64,000 bases of DNA from Candidatus Niyogibacteria bacterium (lineage in GTDB: Bacteria; Patescibacteriota; Minisyncoccia; HO2-45-28). The stretch lies in the NCBI GenBank assembly GCA_016432485.1, contig CP066691.1:516709-580708 (forward strand). The letters are read 5' to 3'. A program made the translations under genes and the position numbers. This document shows, piece by piece, positions 26,152-43,415 of the stretch. The notes below the pieces were generated by a model. That model did not search any database. It had not been told where the DNA came from and saw nothing but the letters and a program-made list of their open reading frames with translations. Each line of letters opens with the position of its first letter. Position 1 is the stretch's first letter.

Positions 26152-26290
26152 GGCGATTTTTCCTCCTTTGGGTTTTCGCCATTTTCGTTTGCCAGAGGGC
26201 CGTCCCAATGACAGCCATAGCCAGAAAATCTTAATTTTTAAGGCCTTTTGGCTATGGCCGCCGGTAAAAAATTTTAAGAACTATGCGTGC

Positions 26291-26319
26291 ATTATACACC
26301 CACCCTATTCGTTTGTCCC
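26291..26319 (-). promoter_or_regulatory. sigma70-like promoter GGGACA-N17-TATAAT for the GC-rich gene
   Basis: The minus strand reads GGGACAaacgaatagggtgggtgTATAAT, directly abutting palindromic element A2. Confidence 0.45.
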
Positions 26320-26387
26320 CCCCCACACCTATTGAGCAATAGCGCCTGAAGGCGCGAAAAAACAAAATTGCTCAATAGGTGTGGGGG
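26319..26387. repeat. palindromic element A2 (perfect 20-bp stem, GC mini-hairpin and A-rich spacer in the loop)
   Basis: CCCCCACACCTATTGAGCAAT / ATTGCTCAATAGGTGTGGGGG with loop AGCGCCTGAAGGCGC-GAAAAAACAAA. The arm sequence is related to A1 (CACACCYATTG...CAAT). Confidence 0.75.
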
Positions 26388-26429
26388 TCAACCCCTTCTT
26401 TTTGGGCTGAATCGTGTCAAAATTAAGTA

Positions 26430-28467: not shown

Positions 28468-31032
28468 ATGGCAGGAAAAAGAAACCTCCTCAAAAAGACA
28501 AAAAAGATATTCTTTTACGGAATAGCCGCGGCGGTTTTGTTCGTTGGCTCTCTTTCCGTGTGGGCTTTAACTTTGGACATTCCGGACTTTGAGGCCTTTG
28601 ACCAGCGCAAAGTCGTGCAGTCAACAAAAATTTACGACCGCTCGGGCGATATTCTTTTATATGACATACATAATGACATACGAAGAACCGTGGTCGCTTT
28701 TGGCGAAATACCGCCCGGCGTCAAAAACGCGACCGTGGCCATGGAAGATTCTAATTTTTACAACCACTACGGCATAAGCTTTCTCGCGATTATGCGCGCG
28801 GCTTTTGTTGACGTGATTTACGGCGGCGTGCACCAGGGCGGATCAACCATAACCCAACAGCTGGTCAAAAAAGCTCTTCTGACCGACGAACAAACCATAA
28901 CCCGCAAACTCAAAGAATTGGTGTTGGCACTCAAGGTGGAACGCGCTTTCAGCAAAGAACAAATCCTGGGTTTTTATCTCAATGAAATACCCTACGGATC
29001 TTCGGCCTACGGAATCGCGGCGGCCGCCGAAACTTTTTTCGGCAAAAAACTGCGGGACATAACTTTAGCCGAATCGACCTATCTTGCTTCTCTCCCCAAC
29101 GCGCCGACTTTTTATTCGCCGTACGGCCCGCACCAAAAAGAACTTAATGAAAGAAAAAATCTGGTTCTTAAAAGAATGTTGGACCTCGGCTTCATAACCC
29201 AAGACGAGGCCGATAAAGCCGAGAGGGAGGAAGTTAAATTCATACCGCGCGGCAATGAAACGTTGAAAGCGCCGCATTTTATATTCTACGTCCGAGATTA
29301 CCTCACTGAAAAATACGGGGAAGAGGCCGTGGAATCTGGCGGACTTAAAGTGGTAACGACTCTTGATTGGAATCTTCAGCAAAAAGCCGAGGACTTAACG
29401 GAAAAATTTGTTGAGGATGAAGAAGAAAAATTTAATGTTTATAATGCCGGCCTTATCGCTACCGACCCTCAAACGGGCCAAATACTGGTAATGGTCGGCT
29501 CAAAAGATTGGTTTTCTGAGCCCAAACCCGAAGGATGTTCGCCGGGCTTAAACTGCAAATTTGAACCGCACGTAAATGTGACCGCTTACGCCTCGGGCCG
29601 CCAGCCCGGCTCGGCTTTCAAACCATTTGTTTATGCGACTGCTTTTCAAAAGGGCTTTACTCCCGAAACCGCGGTCTTTGATTTGCCGACCGAGTTTAAT
29701 CCGTCTTGCGACCCGGACGCGGCCAAGGCCCTTGCCCGAGAAGAAGAACAAAACGAAGAAAAAAAAGATAATTGCTATCACCCGAGAAACTATGACGGCG
29801 TCTTTCGCGGGCCGATAATTCTGCGGGAAGCGCTGGCTCAATCCATCAACCTGCCGGCAGTCAAAACTCTTTACCTTGCCGGCCTTTCGGAATCGCTTAA
29901 AACCGCGAAAAAACTGGGCATTACAACCCTTAATGATCCCGACCGTTATGGATTAACTCTGGTTTTAGGCGGAGGAGAAGTTAAATTGCTGGAAATGGTC
30001 GGAGCATACGGGGTCTTCGCTAACGATGGGGTACGTAATCCCTTAACATCAATCCTTAAAGTGGAGGACGCGAAAGGGAACATTCTTGAAGAATTCCAGC
30101 CAAAACCCGAAGAAGTTCTTGATAAGCAAACCGCCCGTCTTATAAACGATGTGCTCTCGGATAATGAAGCCCGAACTCCGGCTTTTGGCGCGGCCTCTCC
30201 CTTATATTTTCCGGGCTGGGATGTCGCGGCTAAAACCGGAACCACCAATGATTCCAGAGATGCCTGGGTGGTGGGCTATACTCCCAATCTGGCCTGGGGA
30301 GTGTGGTTTGGCAATAACGACAACTCGGAGATGGTCAAAAGTATTGCCGGATTTATCGCAGCACCATTGTGGAATGCTTTTTTTCAGGAAGCATCGCGTA
30401 CCCTTGAGAAAAAAGAATTTATTTCTCCGGCACCGACCGAACCTAAAAAGGCGGTGCTTAACGGCGGGTGGCGCGGAAGCCGAACTTACACCATTGATAA
30501 GATTTCAAAAAAATTAGCGACTGCTTTTACGCCGCAGCAGTATAAGGAAGAAAAACCGCTGATTCAGATACATTCAATTCTTTACTGGCTGGATAAAAAT
30601 AATCCGGACGGGCCCATCCCTCAAAATCCATCAGACGACTCCCAATTTTCTTTATGGGAATATCCCGTAAGAAAGTGGGCCGAATCAAAAAATCTCCGCG
30701 AAGAGAGCGAAAGCGACATTCCGACGCAATATGATGACGTTCATCTTCCTCAGTACGCGCCGGAGATTTCGTTTGTTGTTTCGCCTCCGGATGAGTCCAC
30801 GTATTCCGGTTCGATATCATTCACATTGTCGGCTAGTTCCCGCTATCCCATAAGTCAGATGGACGTTATCTTTGGCAACAGATTTATCGGCTCCATTAAA
30901 AACGCGCCGTACTCGTTTTCCATTGATCTTGCAAAAATAAAAGACCTGCGTCCCGAAGAAACTCTGGTCATAAATGTTTACGACAGCGTCGGTAACAGTT
31001 CTTCACTTGAAAAAACCATCCGTTTGAGATAG
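28468..31032 (+). CDS. class A penicillin-binding protein (glycosyltransferase plus transpeptidase) with C-terminal extension
   Basis: GT51 motifs (EDSNFYNHYGIS, RKxxE), transpeptidase SAFKP (SxxK), SxN and KTG triad; 854 aa. Confidence 0.9.
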   Translation: MAGKRNLLKKTKKIFFYGIAAAVLFVGSLSVWALTLDIPDFEAFDQRKVVQSTKIYDRSGDILLYDIHNDIRRTVVAFGEIPPGVKNATVAMEDSNFYNHYGISFLAIMRAAFVDVIYGGVHQGGSTITQQLVKKALLTDEQTITRKLKELVLALKVERAFSKEQILGFYLNEIPYGSSAYGIAAAAETFFGKKLRDITLAESTYLASLPNAPTFYSPYGPHQKELNERKNLVLKRMLDLGFITQDEADKAEREEVKFIPRGNETLKAPHFIFYVRDYLTEKYGEEAVESGGLKVVTTLDWNLQQKAEDLTEKFVEDEEEKFNVYNAGLIATDPQTGQILVMVGSKDWFSEPKPEGCSPGLNCKFEPHVNVTAYASGRQPGSAFKPFVYATAFQKGFTPETAVFDLPTEFNPSCDPDAAKALAREEEQNEEKKDNCYHPRNYDGVFRGPIILREALAQSINLPAVKTLYLAGLSESLKTAKKLGITTLNDPDRYGLTLVLGGGEVKLLEMVGAYGVFANDGVRNPLTSILKVEDAKGNILEEFQPKPEEVLDKQTARLINDVLSDNEARTPAFGAASPLYFPGWDVAAKTGTTNDSRDAWVVGYTPNLAWGVWFGNNDNSEMVKSIAGFIAAPLWNAFFQEASRTLEKKEFISPAPTEPKKAVLNGGWRGSRTYTIDKISKKLATAFTPQQYKEEKPLIQIHSILYWLDKNNPDGPIPQNPSDDSQFSLWEYPVRKWAESKNLREESESDIPTQYDDVHLPQYAPEISFVVSPPDESTYSGSISFTLSASSRYPISQMDVIFGNRFIGSIKNAPYSFSIDLAKIKDLRPEETLVINVYDSVGNSSSLEKTIRLR

Positions 31033-31033
31033 T
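31008..31033. repeat. 26-bp direct repeat, left copy (3' end of the PBP gene)
   Basis: TGAAAAAACCATCCGTTTGAGATAGT is identical at 32693-32718. Confidence 0.9.
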
Positions 31034-31821
31034 CATTCGGATGTCGTATTTTTAAGTTTTTCTTCCTCCTCCCTGTCATATCTCTCTGCCCTTTCCCAGG
31101 CCAGTTCGTAAAGTTTTTTCATGGCCTCGGCAATTTCGCGGCCTTCAATAACTACTCCGAATTTTTCAGCTAAAGACATAAAAACGACCTTGTTATCATA
31201 GATGTATATTTCGGGCGATATGCTGAATTTTTCATGAGGTACCAAAAGCGCGGTGCGCAAAAACTTTTCTCCGACGCGTTTTAAATGAAGGCCGTATTTT
31301 TCCGTGGGAATAATGGTGCGAATTGGTATTCCTTTTTCAGTGCGGCGGCGGAAATAGTTCTCGGCGTATGAGCCAAGCACTTTTTTAATGTCATGTGTTG
31401 AGCTGTAGCTTAAAATCGTTTCGGAGCTTGTCAAACTGTCTTCATAAAGCGAGGTAACGCCGTCAAACCCCTCATAATAACGCACTTGGGGTTTGTCTTT
31501 GCGCAAACTATGAATGGAGAGAAGTTGGGGCAAAAGTTTTTTAGCCGCTTCTAACCGCTTTTTGTTCTTACTCAGGTCGTCTTCAAGCCGGTCCACCAAA
31601 ATGTACGGGTCTTCGGCGGCATAAATCTTCCTCCCTCTTCTGTCTTGGGATTGACTGACCAGCTTCTTTGCCACCAAACCCTCCAAAACGTTATAGCCAC
31701 TAGTGCGATTTATACCTGCTTTTCGAGCAATATCAGCCACAGCTGATGACCCCAGCTCTAAATTTGCCGCATAAACTCGGGCTTCATTTTCAGAAAAACC
31801 CAATTCTTCCAACTCACGCAT
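31033..31821 (-). CDS. TrmB-family transcriptional regulator
   Basis: N-terminal wHTH (ELEELGFSENEARVYAANLELG...IARKAGINRTSGY) and a C-terminal TrmB-type domain. Start taken at the Met preceded by GGAGGT. Confidence 0.7.
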   Translation of the reverse strand: MRELEELGFSENEARVYAANLELGSSAVADIARKAGINRTSGYNVLEGLVAKKLVSQSQDRRGRKIYAAEDPYILVDRLEDDLSKNKKRLEAAKKLLPQLLSIHSLRKDKPQVRYYEGFDGVTSLYEDSLTSSETILSYSSTHDIKKVLGSYAENYFRRRTEKGIPIRTIIPTEKYGLHLKRVGEKFLRTALLVPHEKFSISPEIYIYDNKVVFMSLAEKFGVVIEGREIAEAMKKLYELAWERAERYDREEEEKLKNTTSE

Positions 31822-31830
31822 TATACCTCC

Positions 31831-31862
31831 ATTATACACCTACAGTATTTTGTGTCAAGACT
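31831..31862 (-). promoter_or_regulatory. perfect-consensus sigma70 promoter TTGACA-N16-TATAAT for the TrmB gene
   Basis: The minus strand reads TTGACAcaaaatactgtaggtgTATAAT-GGAGG-tataATG. A second TTGACA and a CAAGACTCTTG palindrome lie just upstream and are candidate operators. Confidence 0.65.
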
Positions 31863-31918
31863 CTTGCACAGTTTGTCAAGAGCAGTATGTTTTACAACAA
31901 TTTTCTTGTCCCTACTAC

Positions 31919-31946
31919 TTGACAAGGTGTCTGTTTGATGTATAAT
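31919..31946 (+). promoter_or_regulatory. perfect-consensus sigma70 promoter TTGACA-N16-TATAAT for the membrane protein gene
   Basis: cTTGACAaggtgtctgtttgatgTATAAT; the -35 lies inside the palindromic CTTGACAAG motif that is shared with the divergent promoter. Confidence 0.65.
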
Positions 31947-32010
31947 GGGGACAGGAAGTCAGTAGTTTCCTTGAAACATAAACCAGTACAAACAGAAAGG
32001 GAGAAGAAAA

Positions 32011-32585
32011 TGTATACCTGGATTGGCGTGCCGGCTTTGGTATTCGTGTTTATATGTTTGGGCGTGTGGCTCAACGAAAAAACCAACTGGAATCTAAGAG
32101 ATATCCTAAAAGCAATGGCTGCTGCAGCATTGATTACACCGTTCATTGGGGCCTGCGTTGCAGCGGTCGCTGACGTCATAGCGTCTCATGTATCCGAAAG
32201 CCGCTTGGTTCTTGCGGAGACAAAGCCTTTAGTCCGGACACAAAACAAGGGATTGGTCACAGTATGGTTCGTCACAGAAAATGCCAGCGCCTTGGTCAAC
32301 GATCCGCAGGAACGTGCCTATCTCGTCTTTTTCACCAGAGAAAGCGGCGGCAATACGACGCTCAATAAACTCCCTTTGCGTCTGGGCCGTAACGTGGAGA
32401 TCGTGGAGGAAAAACGCGCAGGTGGGATTTTAGAACTCTATGAGTGGCGGTTTGTAAACCCTGCTACAGCCATAAGATGGACGCTCATTTCGGGGGCTGC
32501 AGCATTTTCAGGCCCAAAGTGGGTTCTCCGTATTCCAGAAGGATCAATCGAAACGAGCCGGAATCCACGGCTAAAAACAAAATAA
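32011..32585 (+). CDS. hypothetical membrane protein (2 TM) of atypical composition
   Basis: SD AGGGAG upstream of ATG; 191 aa; ~50% GC; followed by a strong terminator. Confidence 0.5.
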
Positions 32586-32605
32586 CCCGAGAAGCGACAA
32601 GTAAA

Positions 32606-32640
32606 AAACCGCCGGGAGGCAAGCTCCTTCCGGTGGTTTT
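32606..32640 (+). terminator. intrinsic terminator
   Basis: 13-bp stem AACCGCCGGGAGG / CCTTCCGGTGGTT with loop CAAGC, followed by TTTTTAATT. Confidence 0.75.
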
Positions 32641-32644
32641 TAAT

Positions 32645-32689
32645 TATTTAAGAACTCTTCATCGGCATTACCAGATAAAGATACGAAAC
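32645..32689. repeat. degenerate duplicate of the dnaN 3' end (encodes DVSYLYLVMPMKSS-stop on the minus strand)
   Basis: About 85% identical to 33002-33042, the true dnaN terminus. Confidence 0.7.
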
Positions 32690-32692
32690 ATC

Positions 32693-32718
32693 TGAAAAAA
32701 CCATCCGTTTGAGATAGT
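32693..32718. repeat. 26-bp direct repeat, right copy
   Basis: Identical to 31008-31033; in frame it would encode EKTIRLR-stop, the PBP C-terminus. Confidence 0.9.
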
Positions 32719-32990
32719 TATTTAAATAAAATTTTTTGGGGGGCTCTATTTCCGAATTTTTTTCTTAATTCGTCGAGCAAAGAATTCTGCGAAGTAAATA
32801 TAAAGGTTTTAACCGCCATGTTCTTCGTAGAAATTATTATATTAGGCTGGCGAACTTTAATTTCCAGGTCATTCCCGCTTAAATTGTTTTTTTTAAAACA
32901 CCACTCCAAAATATCTTTTTCAACTATCTGGCTATGTGATTTTAATCCGTCAAATTTTTTTAGGAATTCAAAAATCTGCTTAAAAGGCAT
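32718..32990 (-). CDS. small protein downstream of dnaN, possibly DUF721/DciA-like
   Basis: 90 aa immediately 3' of dnaN. The DUF721 assignment rests only on genomic position and a loose recalled pattern resemblance. Confidence 0.3.
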   Translation of the reverse strand: MPFKQIFEFLKKFDGLKSHSQIVEKDILEWCFKKNNLSGNDLEIKVRQPNIIISTKNMAVKTFIFTSQNSLLDELRKKFGNRAPQKILFK

Positions 32991-33001
32991 ACCAAATTCC
33001 T

Positions 33002-34111
33002 TTAGCTTTTCATCGGCATAACCAAATAAAGATATGAAACGTCGCGCGGGTTTTGGATTAGAAGAGGTTTGCTTGCTCCCGAAAAACGCAAAATAACGTC
33101 TTCGGAATTTACGGGCTCCAACCCCTCAAGCAAATATCTCTGATTAAAAGACGCTTCAAGATTTTCTCCGGTAATCTGAGCCTTAAGCTGACCGTTGTGC
33201 TCGCCGAGCTCGCTGTCACTGGTGGTTATCTCAAAAATATTGTCCCCGGCGTAAGCGCGCAATTTTACTTCTTTCAGGCGGCCGGAAAAAACGCCGGCTA
33301 ATTTAAGGTTGTCCGTAAGTTCTTTTTTATTCAGAGTAACTTCGGTGCTGAATGCCGACGGAATTATTTGCTCGTAATCGGGGAAGTTTCCCTCAATCAA
33401 TCTGGTAAAATACGAAAAAGAGGGGTGAAGCGCGAAAAGATGCTGGCGGTCAAACTCCAATTCTACGTCTCCTTCAAAATTCTCAATTATTTTTATGAAA
33501 TCAAGGGCTGATTTTCCGGGAAAGAGAAAAGAGTCTATTTTTTCAGTTTTTGAATCAAAGGATTTTTCAGCCAGACGGAAAGAATCGGTGGCCGCCATTT
33601 TAAAAAATGAGCCCGGATTGTTTTTGCTGCCGGAGGAAAAGAAAACGCTTGATATTTCCGGTTTGATATCGGATTCGGAAGCGGCGAAAATCACGCTTTT
33701 CATGTTTGAAAACAATTTTTCCGCGTTGAAAACCAATTTTTGCCCGTTTTTTATTTTAGGCAGTTTCGGAAAGTCTTCCTGATCATAAGCTTTTATTGTG
33801 GTGGAGGTATTTTTAGTAGTCAGATTAATGTTGTTATTTTTTGATTCTAAAAATATTTTTTCGTCGTTTACTGACGATAAAAGAGAAATAATGGGTTTAG
33901 CCTGAATAACCAGTGTTCCTTCTTTTTTTACTTGAGCCGGTATTTTTGTCTCAAAACCGCTGTATAAATCGGTTGACCTGATAAGCAGATGATTTTTTTC
34001 GGCTTTTAAAAATATTCCGTTTAAAACCGGATTGGCGTTTCTCTGATTGGTTTGCCTTTCGGCCAATTGAATACTTTTTTGGAAATGAGTTTTAAAGCAA
34101 GACAACTCCAT
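33002..34111 (-). CDS. dnaN: DNA polymerase III beta sliding clamp
   Basis: 369 aa with a three-domain layout and MELSCFKTHF...N-terminus. Lies immediately downstream of dnaA. Confidence 0.85.
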   Translation of the reverse strand: MELSCFKTHFQKSIQLAERQTNQRNANPVLNGIFLKAEKNHLLIRSTDLYSGFETKIPAQVKKEGTLVIQAKPIISLLSSVNDEKIFLESKNNNINLTTKNTSTTIKAYDQEDFPKLPKIKNGQKLVFNAEKLFSNMKSVIFAASESDIKPEISSVFFSSGSKNNPGSFFKMAATDSFRLAEKSFDSKTEKIDSFLFPGKSALDFIKIIENFEGDVELEFDRQHLFALHPSFSYFTRLIEGNFPDYEQIIPSAFSTEVTLNKKELTDNLKLAGVFSGRLKEVKLRAYAGDNIFEITTSDSELGEHNGQLKAQITGENLEASFNQRYLLEGLEPVNSEDVILRFSGASKPLLIQNPRDVSYLYLVMPMKS

Positions 34112-37527: not shown

Positions 37528-38691
37528 CTAATTTATAATTTCTAAACTCCAAAGTGAGCCGCTGTTTTTATCTATGAAGAATAGAAAGACGCCGTCGTAT
37601 GATACGGTTATTTGTTTTATGTTGAACGGCAAGGTTTCGTCAAGCAGACGTTTTTGTCCGGTTTCAAAATTTATTTCCCATAATGTATCGCTGGTTGAAA
37701 TAGAGCCTTGCAGCCATTCATCGGGGTAAACAGCCGCTTGCAGACCCTGATCTAGGCCGCAATAAACAAGACCGGCGTTTTTTCGGGTAAAAGAGCATTT
37801 TTCAGCCAGGCCATCGGTTTGGATATCGACAGCCGTTTTTTTGTTCAGGTCGTAAATGAAAAGCCGAGGTTTTTCCGAGGCGGCGTCGTAGACGGAGTAA
37901 ATGACTTTCTGGCCGTCATCTGAAAATTTTATCTGCAGTCCTGCCAGGTCTCCCAAAATTTTGTTAAGAGTCCCCCGCTGGAGGTCGTATTTAAACAGAA
38001 ATCCTTCGGCAACTCCGGACGGACGGCTTAACAGATAAACGGAATTTTTTTCGGGCCAATAAATATCAAAATCTCCGAAAGGAAAAGACGCGACATCAGT
38101 CTGTCTGGAATTATCGGGGTCGGCGGCAATAAGACGCGAGCCGTTCGGCGTCGGTACGAGATAGAGGAGGCGTTCTCTATCCGGCGCGAACGCGAATGAA
38201 ATTATATTTTGGGGCAGAACCGTCGCCCTTGTTGAGGTCGCTATAAATTCGGCCGAAACTGTCCGGATATTGTCATTCTCAATATATTTAAAAATTATTT
38301 TTGAGGCATTTTGGGACCACGATGTTTCAAATATTTTCGGTATGGTCGTGTTTGAAACTCGAGTTTGGTCTTCTCCACGCGGCCCGATGTCCATTATATG
38401 TCCGTCTTGTTTCAAGAGGTAGCGCAGACCGGTTTCTTTTATTGAAAAACTTTCAACCGGACCCTGGTCAAGCATTAAAAGCGCCAGTTCTTCCGCAATC
38501 GGCGCGGGCGCGGTTTCGGGTGAAGGCTGAGCTGGCTCCCCTCCTCCGAAAAGACCGAAAGGAAATCTTTGTAAAAATCCGCGCTCCGCTTCTTCAGCTA
38601 ACGGCGCCGGTCTGACCGCAAGCCAAATCGCCCCGGCGGCGATTACGAGGATGAAAAATATGATTAATCCTATAGCTAATGGTTTATTCAT
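37528..38691 (-). CDS. membrane-anchored beta-propeller (TolB/PD40-like) protein; last gene of the T4SS-like block
   Basis: N-terminal TM helix followed by a repetitive beta-strand-rich sequence with PD40-like patterns. Confidence 0.35.
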   Translation of the reverse strand: MNKPLAIGLIIFFILVIAAGAIWLAVRPAPLAEEAERGFLQRFPFGLFGGGEPAQPSPETAPAPIAEELALLMLDQGPVESFSIKETGLRYLLKQDGHIMDIGPRGEDQTRVSNTTIPKIFETSWSQNASKIIFKYIENDNIRTVSAEFIATSTRATVLPQNIISFAFAPDRERLLYLVPTPNGSRLIAADPDNSRQTDVASFPFGDFDIYWPEKNSVYLLSRPSGVAEGFLFKYDLQRGTLNKILGDLAGLQIKFSDDGQKVIYSVYDAASEKPRLFIYDLNKKTAVDIQTDGLAEKCSFTRKNAGLVYCGLDQGLQAAVYPDEWLQGSISTSDTLWEINFETGQKRLLDETLPFNIKQITVSYDGVFLFFIDKNSGSLWSLEIIN

Positions 38692-38699
38692 AATTTATT

Positions 38700-39542
38700 T
38701 TAACAATTTGTGCCTAACCATGAACATAAAAATCCTTTGGATTGTTGAGACGATTGTTGCTGGGTTGTCTGTTGCTGTGTTTTGGCGGAGCCTACGCAAA
38801 CATAATATCTGGCAGCGCCACTTATATTGCCGCTTCCGGGGAATTGCGACAGGAGACCGAACTCGCCGCCCGCCCCCGAGCATTTTTGCTCCATATTTTC
38901 TATGGCTTTTCTTCTTTCATTGATGTCGTTTGTGCCGAAACTCATCAAATCAATAAATTCTTCAATTTTTAACTTTTTACCGTAAACAGACAGTTTTTGA
39001 TTGATGTTTTCCACGGTTTTAGCCGTATCTCCCGGTATATTAGGACTGGGCGGTATAACTTTTTTCGTTGCGTTCTTTACGATTTCTTGTGTTGATGGTT
39101 CGACTCCGAATAACACATCTTTCCAATCCGGACATTTTCCCTCCGGACATTCTGATGTAAAGGCGCTTGGCGTTTTCGGATTCACAAAAACCGGATTTAT
39201 GGTGTTTAAAGTTATCCATGAAAGAAGAGCCACTGCTAATCCTAGAACAGACGCGGCAATGCGGTTTTTGGCCGCTTCAACCTGCGGAGGGGAGATTGCC
39301 CCTGCCATCCACTGAAAACCCGCGAATATAATGGAAAGAGTAGCGATGACGGCAGCTGAGGCAATCATCAGAGGGAAAAGCCATTTTAAAAAACCGATAA
39401 AACCGTCCCGGGTTTGATTCCATGTGGTGAACTGCTGGGCTGCCTGTTTATCTATCGTGTAATCAGCCGCCTCCGTTGTTATTGCGGCAAACGATATAAA
39501 AAGCGCGATTATTATTGATATGTAAATAATTTTATAAAACAT
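38700..39542 (-). CDS. secreted membrane protein with VirB2/TrbC-like hydrophobic hairpin (candidate pilin) and Q-rich C-terminal extension
   Basis: Signal peptide followed by two long hydrophobic helices (LFPLMIASAAVIATLSIIFAGF / AASVLGLAVALLSWITL), then a ~150-aa soluble tail. Confidence 0.3.
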   Translation of the reverse strand: MFYKIIYISIIIALFISFAAITTEAADYTIDKQAAQQFTTWNQTRDGFIGFLKWLFPLMIASAAVIATLSIIFAGFQWMAGAISPPQVEAAKNRIAASVLGLAVALLSWITLNTINPVFVNPKTPSAFTSECPEGKCPDWKDVLFGVEPSTQEIVKNATKKVIPPSPNIPGDTAKTVENINQKLSVYGKKLKIEEFIDLMSFGTNDINERRKAIENMEQKCSGAGGEFGLLSQFPGSGNISGAARYYVCVGSAKTQQQTTQQQSSQQSKGFLCSWLGTNC

Positions 39543-40536
39543 TTATCGTAAAAGTTTGCCTGGCTTCTTGTAAGATGTTGGAGGTGTTTTTAATTAAAAT
39601 TTCCACCACCGAACTGCCGCCGGCATCGGCCGCGGCCCCGAGGTTTAAAATGTTTTGCGGAGCTTCCTGGCCGGCTCTTCGGCCGTCCACCGACCAGACG
39701 TATTCAAGGTTTTCGCGGCCGCGATCCAGCGAGAAAAAGAACGGATGAGCTATAAAAGATTTTTTCTCTCCGGCAAAAATTACATCATTCCTTCGGTCTT
39801 GAAAAGCGAAATCGTTTTTGGGTCCCGAGAGCGCGTCGTTTTCGTAAACTAGAATAGAAGGATTTAAGACGCCGATATCTATTGATTTTTTGGCAGTGAT
39901 GTTTCCGTCCAGATTTGAAACTTCAAGGTTAACGATATGCGTGAGGTCGGAAGAAAATCCCGCGCCGAAAGTGAAAGTATTTCTGCCCGCGCCTGATTGC
40001 GCCTGTTTGAAATCATTGTCAAGCGTCCAGCGATAAATCAGGCCGGATGCCGGAATTTTTCTGCCGCCGGAAACCAGGTTTGGGAAAGCGCTTGCGGTTA
40101 TTGCTGATTTCGGCGAAGCCAGAGCTTTTCCTTTGTACCAAAAAGGAATTGATGTCGCGGCCCGCCATAAGATGTCAACATCGGCTATGACCAGCGAGAA
40201 TTCTGTTTCGTGGCGTATGCCGTTTACGTCTATTGCGACGACGGTTAATATTTCTGATTTTCCGACATCTCCGGTTGTGAATCCGTATTCTTTAAGGCCG
40301 GTTCCGCGGAGCGCGACCGCGCCGTTATGAATCCATGTAATTTGTGAGCTGTTTAATTCAAAAGAAAACGCCGAAACGCGGGCGATAATGTTTTGATTGG
40401 GACCCGGAGCATCGGTTGGGATCAGCTCTATAAAAAAGTTTTCCGTTCCCGTTCCCAAATCAATCTGGGCTCCGGCAGGAAAAATCGTCAGAAAAGCCAG
40501 AAATAAAACCGTTGTTAATAAAAATTTATTTCGCAT
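39532..40536 (-). CDS. secreted hypothetical protein
   Basis: Cleavable signal peptide (LFLAFLTIFPAGAQ) and a beta-rich sequence; 334 aa. Confidence 0.4.
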   Translation of the reverse strand: MRNKFLLTTVLFLAFLTIFPAGAQIDLGTGTENFFIELIPTDAPGPNQNIIARVSAFSFELNSSQITWIHNGAVALRGTGLKEYGFTTGDVGKSEILTVVAIDVNGIRHETEFSLVIADVDILWRAATSIPFWYKGKALASPKSAITASAFPNLVSGGRKIPASGLIYRWTLDNDFKQAQSGAGRNTFTFGAGFSSDLTHIVNLEVSNLDGNITAKKSIDIGVLNPSILVYENDALSGPKNDFAFQDRRNDVIFAGEKKSFIAHPFFFSLDRGRENLEYVWSVDGRRAGQEAPQNILNLGAAADAGGSSVVEILIKNTSNILQEARQTFTINVL

Positions 40537-40540
40537 ATTA

Positions 40541-40924
40541 TTATTCTCCGAAAAACGTCCTAAATTGCGGACTCTTATTGTAAAAGTATAGAAACACCAC
40601 CATTCCGGTATAAGCCGGCAGAAAAGGTATGAATCCCGAAGCCCCGCTTAGGTGAAAGGCCCACGGTTTTTTAAGTTCGCGGGCTTGTGTCCACGCGAAT
40701 ATAGTAAACCAAGCTATACCGTCTATTATAAAACCGACAAGGGGTACTTGGCTAATTAAGTCGCAAAACGAAGCAAAACCAATCATCATTCCGAACTCGG
40801 ACTTGCTTACCATGGGACCGGCCACGGCGGCCGCTTTTTGCGTCGCCAGGCCTTCATTTTTACGGGATTCCTGAAGTTTCAAGTTTCGTTCGCCTTCCTC
40901 GGTTGTAATATTTTCATCAGCCAT
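40541..40924 (-). CDS. small membrane protein
   Basis: 127 aa with 2-3 hydrophobic helices. Confidence 0.4.
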   Translation of the reverse strand: MADENITTEEGERNLKLQESRKNEGLATQKAAAVAGPMVSKSEFGMMIGFASFCDLISQVPLVGFIIDGIAWFTIFAWTQARELKKPWAFHLSGASGFIPFLPAYTGMVVFLYFYNKSPQFRTFFGE

Positions 40925-40932
40925 GTTTTAAA

Positions 40933-42750
40933 TTATTTTTCCTGCGCTATTCCCTGCTTCGCCTTTTTAATCGCTAATAATTGCTGGGGGTCGGAAGTTA
41001 TAATTTGGTCTTCGGTGTAAGACGATATTATTTTGATGGCCACATGTTTGAGGCCGGCGAAAAACAACCCTTCGCCGATATCGGACTCCAGTATCAGGAA
41101 TTTTTCTTCGTCGGTCAGGTTGAAAGTTTTTTGGAGAAGATCAATGGTCGCGGGCGACTGTTTTAAAAGAATCTGGATTGAAGAGTTTGTAATGATGGGC
41201 ACGCCGTAAGGGGAGCGCAAAAAATCGCCCACGTCTTGAGTAATCGTCGCCACTCCCAAAAAATATTTTCTCGCGCGCTTGGCTATGCCGAATAAGAATG
41301 AGGCGCCCTGTTCTTCTTTCATAATCCACCAGGCTTCGTCTATGACCAGAATTCTCTTTTTTAAATTTTTTCGGACAGCGTTCCAGATATGGTGGGTTAT
41401 CAAATACATTGCCACCGGACGCAGTTCGTCCTCCATGTCTCTTACCGAAAAAACCACCAGCTTTTTATTTATATCAACATTTGTAGGCTGGTTGATGAAG
41501 CCGGCCCAAGTGCCCTGGGTGTATTTGCGCATGCGCTGGGCCAATCCTTCGCCGCCTTCCATATTGGCTAAAATCAATTCAAGATCCGAAAGTATCGGCG
41601 GAATTTTTGAAGAAAAATCAGATTCCGGAGTAATGTCGCGCGAAGCGTAAGTTTCGGTGATGGCCCGGTCTAAAATGGAATCCTCTTCCGGCGTAAGTCC
41701 GCCGAGCATTATGCGGAAAAGTCCGACTAAGTTTATGATGTTAGACCTTAAAATATCCGAGGGGTCTTCGTCTTCGCGGGGTTTGGGCAGGTCAAAAGGA
41801 TTAATATGATGCTGGGAAGAAAGAGAGATGTTGAAATATCGGCCGTCAACGGCCTCCGACAGAAATTCATATTCGCGTTCGGGGTCAATCACTATGACAT
41901 CGGTGTCAAACATTAAAGAGCGAAGTATTTCAAGTTTCGTGGCATAACTTTTTCCCGCTCCGGCTTTGGCGAAAATGACCGAATTGTAGTTTTCAAGCGA
42001 GAATCTGTCAAAAAGAACCAGGCTGTTATTATGGCGATTTACGCCGTAAAGAATGCCTCGGTTGGAAGTGAGGTCAAATGAAACAAAAGGGAAAAGACTT
42101 GATATCGGCGAGGAATTAAGTTTGTTGTTGACTCCCAGAATGTCCCGTCCCAGGGGGAAAACAGTCAGGAGGCCGTCATCCTGCTGGAAAAGAGCGGGTT
42201 TGGCGTAAACCAGACGGGATTCAAGCATTGACCTTATTTCCGTTTCGTCCCGGTTGAGTTCTTCCAGAGTGTCGGCATAGATTGTCATATAAAGGCCGAA
42301 AGAAAAAAGTTTTTCCTGCGCCTGTTGCAGTTTGTCGCGCAGTTCCTCCAGGTTTTGATAAGCGGCATCCAGCATCGGGTCCCTAACCAGGCCTTTTTCT
42401 TCGCGCATGTGGATTTGAGACTGGACTTCGGCGACCTTTTTCTGGAGCTGGCGTAAAACTCCGGCCGTATCCATCGGATGGATGTAAATAGATATGTCAA
42501 AAACCTTGTCGAGATTTATGATTGAGCTGAACCAGTTCACGGCCAGATATTTGGGATAGGAGAAAATAAAAATGGTGCGGGCTATTTTTTCCCCGATTTT
42601 TACGTAATTTGAATTTACTTCCAAAGCTGACGGCGCGATGATGTCTTTCAATTCCAAAACCGCGGCCTCGTAAATCTGTTCGGGCTGAATCGCGATTATC
42701 TCGTCGTTTGCCCCCACCTCCTTCTTTTTGAATAAGTCTCCTAAAGCCAT
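40933..42750 (-). CDS. VirB4/TrbE/CagE-family type IV secretion ATPase (C-terminal ATPase part)
   Basis: Walker A FAKAGAGKSYATK, the VirB4-type Walker B LVIDEAWWIM and downstream motifs; 605 aa. Confidence 0.7.
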   Translation of the reverse strand: MALGDLFKKKEVGANDEIIAIQPEQIYEAAVLELKDIIAPSALEVNSNYVKIGEKIARTIFIFSYPKYLAVNWFSSIINLDKVFDISIYIHPMDTAGVLRQLQKKVAEVQSQIHMREEKGLVRDPMLDAAYQNLEELRDKLQQAQEKLFSFGLYMTIYADTLEELNRDETEIRSMLESRLVYAKPALFQQDDGLLTVFPLGRDILGVNNKLNSSPISSLFPFVSFDLTSNRGILYGVNRHNNSLVLFDRFSLENYNSVIFAKAGAGKSYATKLEILRSLMFDTDVIVIDPEREYEFLSEAVDGRYFNISLSSQHHINPFDLPKPREDEDPSDILRSNIINLVGLFRIMLGGLTPEEDSILDRAITETYASRDITPESDFSSKIPPILSDLELILANMEGGEGLAQRMRKYTQGTWAGFINQPTNVDINKKLVVFSVRDMEDELRPVAMYLITHHIWNAVRKNLKKRILVIDEAWWIMKEEQGASFLFGIAKRARKYFLGVATITQDVGDFLRSPYGVPIITNSSIQILLKQSPATIDLLQKTFNLTDEEKFLILESDIGEGLFFAGLKHVAIKIISSYTEDQIITSDPQQLLAIKKAKQGIAQEK

Positions 42751-42761
42751 AATGTTAAAGT

Positions 42762-43415
42762 TTAAGTTCTAATTTGCGGCGCGTGTCCTTTTTCCAATTC
42801 CCCCGGGTTGAATAATCCGTAGAAGAGTTCAACCGCCTCTTCGGTGTTTAGGGGCGCGGTTCGCGTTCCGGTTGAAGCAATGGCTCCCGAAACCGTTTCG
42901 GCTCTTTGCCAGAGTTGATTTTTATGTTCCTCAAATTTTTCATCGCTTAGTTGTTTGTCTTCTTTTTTTACGCCGAAAAGCCCTTTGAATATCCCGCCCA
43001 GTCCGTTTTTTTTGCCGATCTCAATTAAGGGAGGGGCAAAAGAGACGACGATGTAGAAATTTTTGGTCACGATTTTTGTGGTTTCAACAAAAGTTCTGAT
43101 GAATTCAATGTATTCGCGTGTCTGTATTTTCAATAATTCATTAGTCTGGTCGCGTTCTGTTTCGCGCAGAGTTTCAAGGTAGGGTTCAATATTGAGCCTG
43201 CGTGACTGGATCACGATTTGCACCGAGAAATCCAGCGCGTTTAAAAAGTTTTGATATTGCGCGGTAATGGCCTCTTGCTCCTCGTTTGACCTTAAGGCGA
43301 AATTCAAAGACGAAGCCATCAAAACCATATGTAGGCTTTTATCTTCGGTGATTATTATGCCGTCGCGTATTTCTCTTATCGGCACGAATTCCTGCGCTGA
43401 TAGTGGTTTTGCCAT
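42762..43415 (-). CDS. probable N-terminal domain of VirB4 encoded as a separate ORF
   Basis: 217 aa ending 11 nt before the ATPase ORF. Combined length of 822 aa equals a typical VirB4. Confidence 0.4.
   Translation of the reverse strand: MAKPLSAQEFVPIREIRDGIIITEDKSLHMVLMASSLNFALRSNEEQEAITAQYQNFLNALDFSVQIVIQSRRLNIEPYLETLRETERDQTNELLKIQTREYIEFIRTFVETTKIVTKNFYIVVSFAPPLIEIGKKNGLGGIFKGLFGVKKEDKQLSDEKFEEHKNQLWQRAETVSGAIASTGTRTAPLNTEEAVELFYGLFNPGELEKGHAPQIRT

Follow-up and report, generated by a model that had tools for sequence, protein, structure and literature searches.

The stretch of DNA considered here (the window) is 64 kb of a metagenome-assembled genome of Candidatus Niyogibacteria, and all positions are counted from its start. 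Between a gene for a penicillin-binding protein (PBP) and the dnaN gene, the window carries a cassette consisting of a TrmB-like regulator and a divergently transcribed membrane protein, flanked by a 26-bp direct repeat that duplicates the PBP 3' end. This repeat is most likely the recombination scar left by the import of chromosomal DNA from a related Niyogibacteria lineage, and not the attachment site of a self-mobile element. An earlier interpretation based on the letters alone (the sequence-only reading) had proposed a site-specific insertion with target duplication. The insertion itself, the duplicated PBP tail, and the empty sites in relatives have been borne out, but the mechanism has not, since the insert ends in a foreign dnaN fragment, the PBP gene is a mosaic, the 26-mer was found only at this locus, and credible terminal inverted repeats are lacking.

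The 26-mer, TGAAAAAACCATCCGTTTGAGATAGT, has exactly two copies in the window, at 31008-31033 and 32693-32718 on the plus strand. No third copy is present in the window at up to three mismatches, and none is expected by chance (0 in 100 shuffles). Copy 1 is the functional 3' end of the gene for a class A PBP of 854 aa (28468-31032, plus strand), in which transglycosylase and transpeptidase domains are matched in Pfam. As the sequence-only reading had claimed, it is the real end of this gene, comprising the last eight codons and the stop codon TAG at 31030-31032; its final T also begins the stop codon of the TrmB-like gene on the other strand. Copy 2 adjoins the stop codon of orf90 (32718-32990, minus strand), a conserved 90-aa gene downstream of dnaN, and is followed further on by the resident dnaN (33002-34111, minus strand, 369 aa). 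Both orf90 and the resident dnaN are intact, with no apparent deletion of recipient DNA; 26 nt have been duplicated instead.

The PBP-dnaN junction was compared among five related lineages recovered via their dnaN proteins, a check that the sequence-only reading had suggested, and all five have an empty site without the TrmB/membrane gene pair. In L021-L024 and L111, dnaN is followed by orf90 and then by the convergent PBP gene, with the stop codons of orf90 and PBP abutting. The same order is found in L025-L027 with 23 nt between orf90 and PBP. In L019/L020 and L028, orf90 is absent, and dnaN and PBP converge with a spacer of 0-2 nt. We will use the term "A-clade" for the genomes without orf90 (L019, L020, and L028) and "orf90-clade" for L021-L024, L025-L027, and L111. 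L019 (GCA_964574495.1) and L020 (GCA_016187675.1) represent the A-type lineage; the imported sequence is referred to as A-type, and the resident or recipient sequence of the window lineage as type W. The orf90 gene itself is present in the window, L021, L025, and L111. Copy 2 adjoins the orf90 stop codon exactly as the PBP stop codon does in L021 and L111, and is therefore the recipient's original PBP end, displaced. The insertion of the regulator and membrane genes at the PBP 3' end is lineage-specific. Every contig returned by exact-protein look-ups with the TrmB-like protein, the 191-aa membrane protein, the orf90 product, and DnaN matched the window at 100% identity, and an exact look-up with a GTG-extended form of the TrmB open reading frame (ORF) gave no match. 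A PBP homolog search returned only the window's own PBP and the cassette-less A-type PBP, and no dnaN homologs above 77% identity were present in the database searched.

The right end of the insert gives an indication of its origin. The last 47 nt between the repeats (32646-32692, minus strand) are not part of the cassette but the 3' end of a second dnaN gene, made up of a 2-nt spacer (AT), a stop codon, and 14 codons. The minus strand at 32648-32692 reads DVSYLYLVMPMKSS*, a second, truncated DnaN C-terminus. Including the AT spacer, this remnant is identical to the dnaN end of L019/L020 at 46 of 47 positions, compared with 33 of 38 for the tail of the resident dnaN (5 of 38 differ). Because the resident dnaN as a whole is only 74% identical to that of L019 at the nucleotide level, the remnant is foreign and A-type. 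The homology to L019 ends exactly at 32692|32693, where a dnaN codon of A-type meets a PBP codon of the recipient. Across 32646-32718 the dnaN tail precedes the PBP tail, whereas convergent genes would show the opposite order; an arrangement of this kind is expected where two different molecules meet, or at a circle or tandem junction. With 45 nt of dnaN and the 2-nt spacer of another lineage at its end, the insert is a piece of a relative's chromosome rather than an element with its own ends.

The PBP gene on the other side of the cassette is a mosaic of resident and A-type sequence. Left of 29525 it differs from L019 at 289 of 1057 nt (73% identity). From 29525 to 30761 (tract S2, plus strand) there are only 46 mismatches in 1237 nt (96% against the 73% background), 39 of which lie at third codon positions. 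The switch at 29524/29525 is sharp (Fisher p = 2.5e-61; maximum chi-square at ~29488-29525), and no such switch is seen at 29525 against L021 or L025. Tract S2 is followed by a resident-type patch of 119 nt (S3, 30762-30880, plus strand) with 55% identity to both A-clade genomes and 64-70% to the orf90-clade; its protein motif, PPDE..SASSRYPISQMD..FGN, resembles those of L021, L025, and P0227. A second A-type tract (S4, 30881-31015, plus strand) is 93% identical to L019, 84% to L028, and 72-76% to the orf90-clade. Since both A-clade genomes resemble S4 more closely than any orf90-clade genome does, the direction of transfer was from the A-type to the window lineage. Recipient-type sequence returns in the final 17 nt of the gene, which encode TIRLR*, comparable to TIRLK*, DIRLK*, and EIRLK* in the orf90-clade, while the A-clade has KINLK* (L019 tail sequence: AGATAAACTTAAAATAAATCTAAGAAC). 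The rest of the 20-kb synteny with L019 shows 73-80% identity, save one 121-nt intergenic stretch.

Public assemblies add information on both boundaries. In the Logan assemblies of several sequencing runs, on which the reality of the junctions was judged, 32692|32693 is spanned at 100% identity by contigs from SRR12113419, SRR12113401, SRR12113425, and SRR12113421, and 29524|29525 is spanned by contigs from SRR12113432, SRR12113425, and SRR12113385. Every public contig that bears the cassette matches the window at 100% identity. Three other runs yielded cassette contigs that end exactly at 32692 and dnaN-orf90 contigs that end at 32663, leaving a 30-nt overlap, which is the expectation at a branch in an assembly graph built with k = 31, as Logan's is. 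Further contigs end at 29515 and 29525, directly after positions where L019 differs, and one contig (SRR12113426) covers exactly 29515-32692. These breaks suggest a coexisting genotype that shares 29515-32692 but has other flanks, as the donor would look. The contigs of some runs also end inside the cassette or orf90, at 31376, 31897, 32213-32242, and 32805 (L005, L006, L008, L018, and L110), which points to coexisting strain-level variants of the cassette-bearing genotype in those samples. The L020 contig (GCA_016187675.1) ends inside PBP at the equivalent of window position 29979, within the high-identity tract; such an end would be the pattern expected from co-assembly of donor-like and recipient-like strains at the same site.

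We think it probable, if by no means certain, that a piece of ~3.2 kb of an A-type chromosome carrying the cassette was imported by way of a homologous anchor in PBP and an illegitimate joint at the other end. In the donor, the cassette would have been located between the convergent PBP and dnaN genes, and the imported piece would correspond to 29525-32692. The left end would have been established by homologous exchange within PBP, with a crossover at 29524/29525 in a conserved stretch just upstream of the SxxK motif. This exchange would have been patchy, sparing the stretches of greatest divergence (30762-30880 and the final 17 nt of PBP), where the recipient sequence was retained. At the right end, 45 nt into the donor dnaN, the incoming DNA would have been joined illegitimately to the recipient at a point 26 nt before the PBP stop. 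The expected product of a single event of this kind is an intact PBP gene, the cassette, a dnaN remnant, a 26-nt PBP remnant, and the resident orf90 and dnaN. The direct repeat would then be a by-product of the position of the illegitimate joint and not the target of a recombinase. A cassette-bearing A-type donor would be recognizable by ...GATACGAAACATC linked to GCGGGGGTTTTG.

This type of event, homology-facilitated illegitimate recombination (HFIR), has been defined and documented experimentally in the natural transformation of S. pneumoniae, Acinetobacter baylyi, and Pseudomonas stutzeri, and its usual outcome is the deletion of recipient DNA of similar size (PMC3240628). As in HFIR products, the donor-type tract (PBP 29525-31015) adjoins foreign DNA, and the other end joins non-homologous sequences, here the donor dnaN at codon -14 and the recipient PBP at nucleotide -26. 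On the other hand, the anchor is patchy here, the donor and the uptake are unobserved, and the host is an uncultivated member of the candidate phyla radiation (CPR). Mosaic, discontinuous tracts have been reported in natural transformation (PMC13344027). HFIR has also been put forward to explain natural loci in which displaced 3' remnants persist (PMC5361080). In the additive displacement at the type VI secretion system effector-immunity arrays of V. cholerae and at Rhs loci, as here, a module is anchored in a conserved upstream gene and the old 3' end is pushed downstream, giving rise to orphan remnants; HFIR was proposed, with no integrase involved (PMC5361080). The V. cholerae arrays, however, keep selected functional immunity genes, while only non-functional tails of 26 nt and 45 nt are found here, without a toxin system.

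Several observations weigh against such a single import. No donor with the cassette between PBP and dnaN has been recovered, and the sequenced A-type genomes have both genes abutting. The final 17 coding nt of copy 1 belong to the recipient type, whereas a simple HFIR product would carry the donor tail; this calls for either patch repair or a donor already possessing such a tail. In place of the deletion typical of canonical HFIR products (PMC3240628), 26 nt are duplicated here, and a joint placed upstream of the end of the homology would be needed to give a short duplication instead. Microhomology at 32692|32693 cannot be shown, as the sequence that the recipient originally had to the left of the joint has been lost. 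A pattern of contig ends similar to that described above could also arise from a cassette-less A-type strain together with graph cleaning by the assembler. Finally, the nearest homolog of the TrmB-like protein is at only 55% identity. A-type DNA flanks the cassette on both sides, but the 17-nt PBP tail beside it is of recipient type and a cassette-bearing donor has not been found.

The same data could also be accounted for by two or more events, which we regard as possible but doubtful. The PBP end would have received a circularized or linear fragment with the cassette and the dnaN remnant, either through a Campbell crossover via ~26 bp of homology or through double illegitimate recombination, which would have created the duplication, and PBP 29525-31015 would have been replaced separately by homologous recombination with a cassette-less A-type strain. 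Both copies of the 26-mer have the recipient-type tail, which fits a true duplication of recipient sequence, and a homologous tract would naturally stop at the heterology. A-type genomes without the cassette are known and probably co-occur with the window genotype, and the contig of L020 breaks in the shared tract. Single crossovers of circles are moreover an experimentally observed source of insert-flanking duplications, as described in the E. coli lacZ system (PMC3240628). The Campbell integrations in that system resemble the present locus in that the shared segment is directly duplicated on the two sides of the insert, but their duplications are 109-950 bp long (PMC3240628) compared with 26 bp here, and the adjacent donor-type PBP tract would be left unexplained. 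In a stepwise course, the A-type sequences directly on either side of the cassette, namely the PBP tracts and the dnaN remnant, would be independent contributions brought together by coincidence. In addition, the circle would need a recipient-type PBP tail together with an A-type dnaN tail, and hence a hybrid source. A length of ~26 bp is also at the lower limit for RecA-dependent exchange. The single import and the stepwise course share the same core, namely that the repeat is a scar of recombination between related chromosomes.

A mobile cassette, which would fit the site-specific insertion favored by the sequence-only reading, is improbable. It would be an integrase-less cassette inserted site-specifically at a 26-bp attachment site in the PBP 3' end, with the recombinase supplied in trans and the dnaN remnant derived from imprecise excision in an earlier host. 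The repeats do duplicate a gene 3' end and the gene is reconstituted, as is the case for islands at tRNA genes, and the relatives have empty sites. Furthermore, only 2 nt separate the PBP and dnaN ends of the A-type, and any element inserted at this point is in contact with both. In a broader form, for which we see equally little likelihood, a minimal mobile module might move between the abutting 3' ends of two convergent core genes (PBP and dnaN) beside the replication origin through a host recombinase that recognizes the 26-mer, with the dnaN tail as a souvenir of imprecise excision. The absence of an integrase, already pointed out by the sequence-only reading, was confirmed: Pfam matches on the called genes identified no recombinase in the cassette or in ~10 kb around it. 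Likewise, no transposase was found over this range, and the only ORFs of the cassette are those for the TrmB helix-turn-helix protein and the orphan membrane protein. The search for the 26-mer elsewhere that had been recommended gave no copy outside this locus in the window and none in metagenomes of the JGI, where neither a 25-mer of the repeat nor a 28-mer of the cassette terminator had a match.

No second copy or close relative of the cassette has been found either, with the nearest TrmB-like homolog being a distant one and the membrane protein an orphan. The whole cassette had no blastn match among plasmids and phages, and a scan of viral contigs with the TrmB profile detected no relative. 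Terminal inverted repeats were considered and rejected. The best similarity between the ends is gapped, with a 6-nt offset, and marginal (p ~0.04), with a right arm that consists of nothing but dnaN coding sequence. Transposons and insertion sequences typically generate target-site duplications of 2-15 bp, and the 26-bp duplication lies outside this fixed short range. Nor does a site-specific event explain the co-transfer of the adjacent 1.5 kb of PBP. Islands and prophages placed by a tyrosine integrase at gene 3' ends, typically those of tRNA genes, resemble the present locus in that the repeats correspond to the target 3' end, the gene remains intact, and empty sites exist. Unlike the present locus, they have an integrase; here the attachment site does not recur, the insert ends in a gene fragment of another host, and upstream homologous DNA has been co-transferred.

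An assembly artefact, in which a chimeric contig would have been built from two coexisting strains, has also been considered. Two related strains do seem to occur together, and the breaks in several assemblies coincide exactly with these boundaries. There is, however, no shared k-mer at 32692|32693 able to mislead an assembler, and both junctions are spanned by independent contigs from several runs, which makes an assembly chimera very unlikely. An old tandem duplication of the interval from the PBP tail to the dnaN tail in this lineage, followed by divergence and gene replacement, would have the joint topology that is observed but was rejected as scarcely credible, as the remnant matches the dnaN of the other lineage at 46 of 47 positions and differs from the resident gene at 5 of 38, and the two intervals share no other similarity.

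The cassette itself looks like an ordinary module of a regulator and a divergent target. The sequence-only reading had described a TrmB-family regulator, a divergent protein with two transmembrane segments, a strong terminator, and two divergent consensus sigma70 promoters between the repeats, and each of these has been recovered. The regulator gene (31033-31821, minus strand) encodes a winged helix-turn-helix protein that matches Pfam PF01978 (E = 1.6e-14, 53.9 bits against a cut-off of 25.6); the annotated form of 262 aa begins at an ATG. A profile of 30 homologs matches TrmB (PDB 3QPH, E = 1.6e-9) and TrmBL2 (PDB 5BQT) over the N-terminal 100-140 residues, which comprise the winged helix-turn-helix and the following helix, and the protein is similar in size to TrmBL2. 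It differs from TrmB in being a bacterial (CPR) member with no detectable match to the sugar-binding C-terminal domain, and no Pfam match was found past residue 78. The NCBIfam equivalogs of TrmB and TrmBL1 score 30-37 bits, far below their cut-offs of 600-650. TrmB-like proteins of 250-265 aa form a family that is widespread in CPR genomes, with 351 loci among species representatives. At 60 of 80 CPR loci with a TrmB homolog, the gene upstream is divergently transcribed; it varies and in many cases encodes a membrane or secreted protein. The 191-aa protein has no homolog at any of the 80.

The control region between the regulator and the gene for the 191-aa protein is 188 bp long. It contains the divergent promoter region (31831-31946), in which the minus-strand promoter (31858-31831) and the plus-strand promoter (31919-31946) both read TTGACA-16-TATAAT and match the consensus at 12 of 12 positions. 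Three of the window's eight copies of the heptamer CTTGACA lie within 72 nt at 31853-31924 (at 31853, 31874, and 31918), covering both -35 boxes and a third site, and the palindrome CAAGACTCTTG is located in the same region. From their placement, the CTTGACA repeats are candidate TrmB operators, and autoregulation together with repression of the divergent gene is plausible.

The divergent gene (32010-32585, plus strand) encodes an orphan protein of 191 aa with two N-terminal transmembrane segments in the hydropathy plot and a beta-rich C-terminal part. It has no Pfam or NCBIfam family, and a search among 1.84 billion representatives returned only the protein itself and two marginal matches. 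Its AlphaFold model is poor (predicted local distance difference test score of 43) and unusable. The gene is followed by an intrinsic terminator (32604-32641, plus strand) with a 16-bp stem (-25.9 kcal/mol, z = -4). It is preceded by an A-run and followed by a T-run, and it could therefore act in both directions. The atypical GC content that had been ascribed to the membrane gene was not upheld. Its value of 0.498 corresponds to the 91st percentile of same-size windows, and the cassette as a whole is at 0.458 against a window mean of 0.452, both inside the normal range.

Some features of the neighborhood deserve mention. The orf90 gene occurs at 32718-32990 in the window, 10122-10394 in L021, 10120-10392 in L025, and 4595-4867 in L111, and its product has no Pfam or NCBIfam family. 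The resident DnaN ends in ...MPMKS* and is one residue shorter than all 15 of its closest homologs, which end in KSS, KNS, or KGS. The 121-nt intergenic stretch at 26198-26317, between a gene for a 189-aa protein and ruvC, is 96% identical to L019 with flanks at ~75%, and contains the hairpin CAGCCATAGCCA...TGGCTATGGC. It is directly followed by a long palindrome with perfect arms of 21 nt at 26318-26388. Neither a tRNA nor a match to an Rfam family was found in 26198-26388, which could be a conserved non-coding RNA or regulatory element, or a second small A-type import. A cluster of a TraG/VirB4-like P-loop protein (DUF87) and TraC-like proteins is located at ~38500-43200, ~6-10 kb from the cassette. 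Since this cluster is syntenic in all relatives (compare L010, L019, and L021), it is core and not part of the insertion; a role in DNA transfer or uptake is conceivable.

The event is of a known kind, well preserved in an uncultivated CPR genome, and the architecture of the cassette looks ordinary. Repeats that duplicate a gene 3' end are not by themselves evidence of site-specific integration, and they call for a check of mosaicism in the flanking genes and of foreign gene fragments at the ends of the insert. For the organism, the locus indicates recent gene flow between lineages at the dnaA-dnaN region of Niyogibacteria. It provides a natural example of accessory genes entering a tiny, uncultivated CPR (Patescibacteria) genome without mobile-element machinery, the route being recombination with a co-occurring relative that is ~25% diverged, with both displaced gene tails left intact as the scar.

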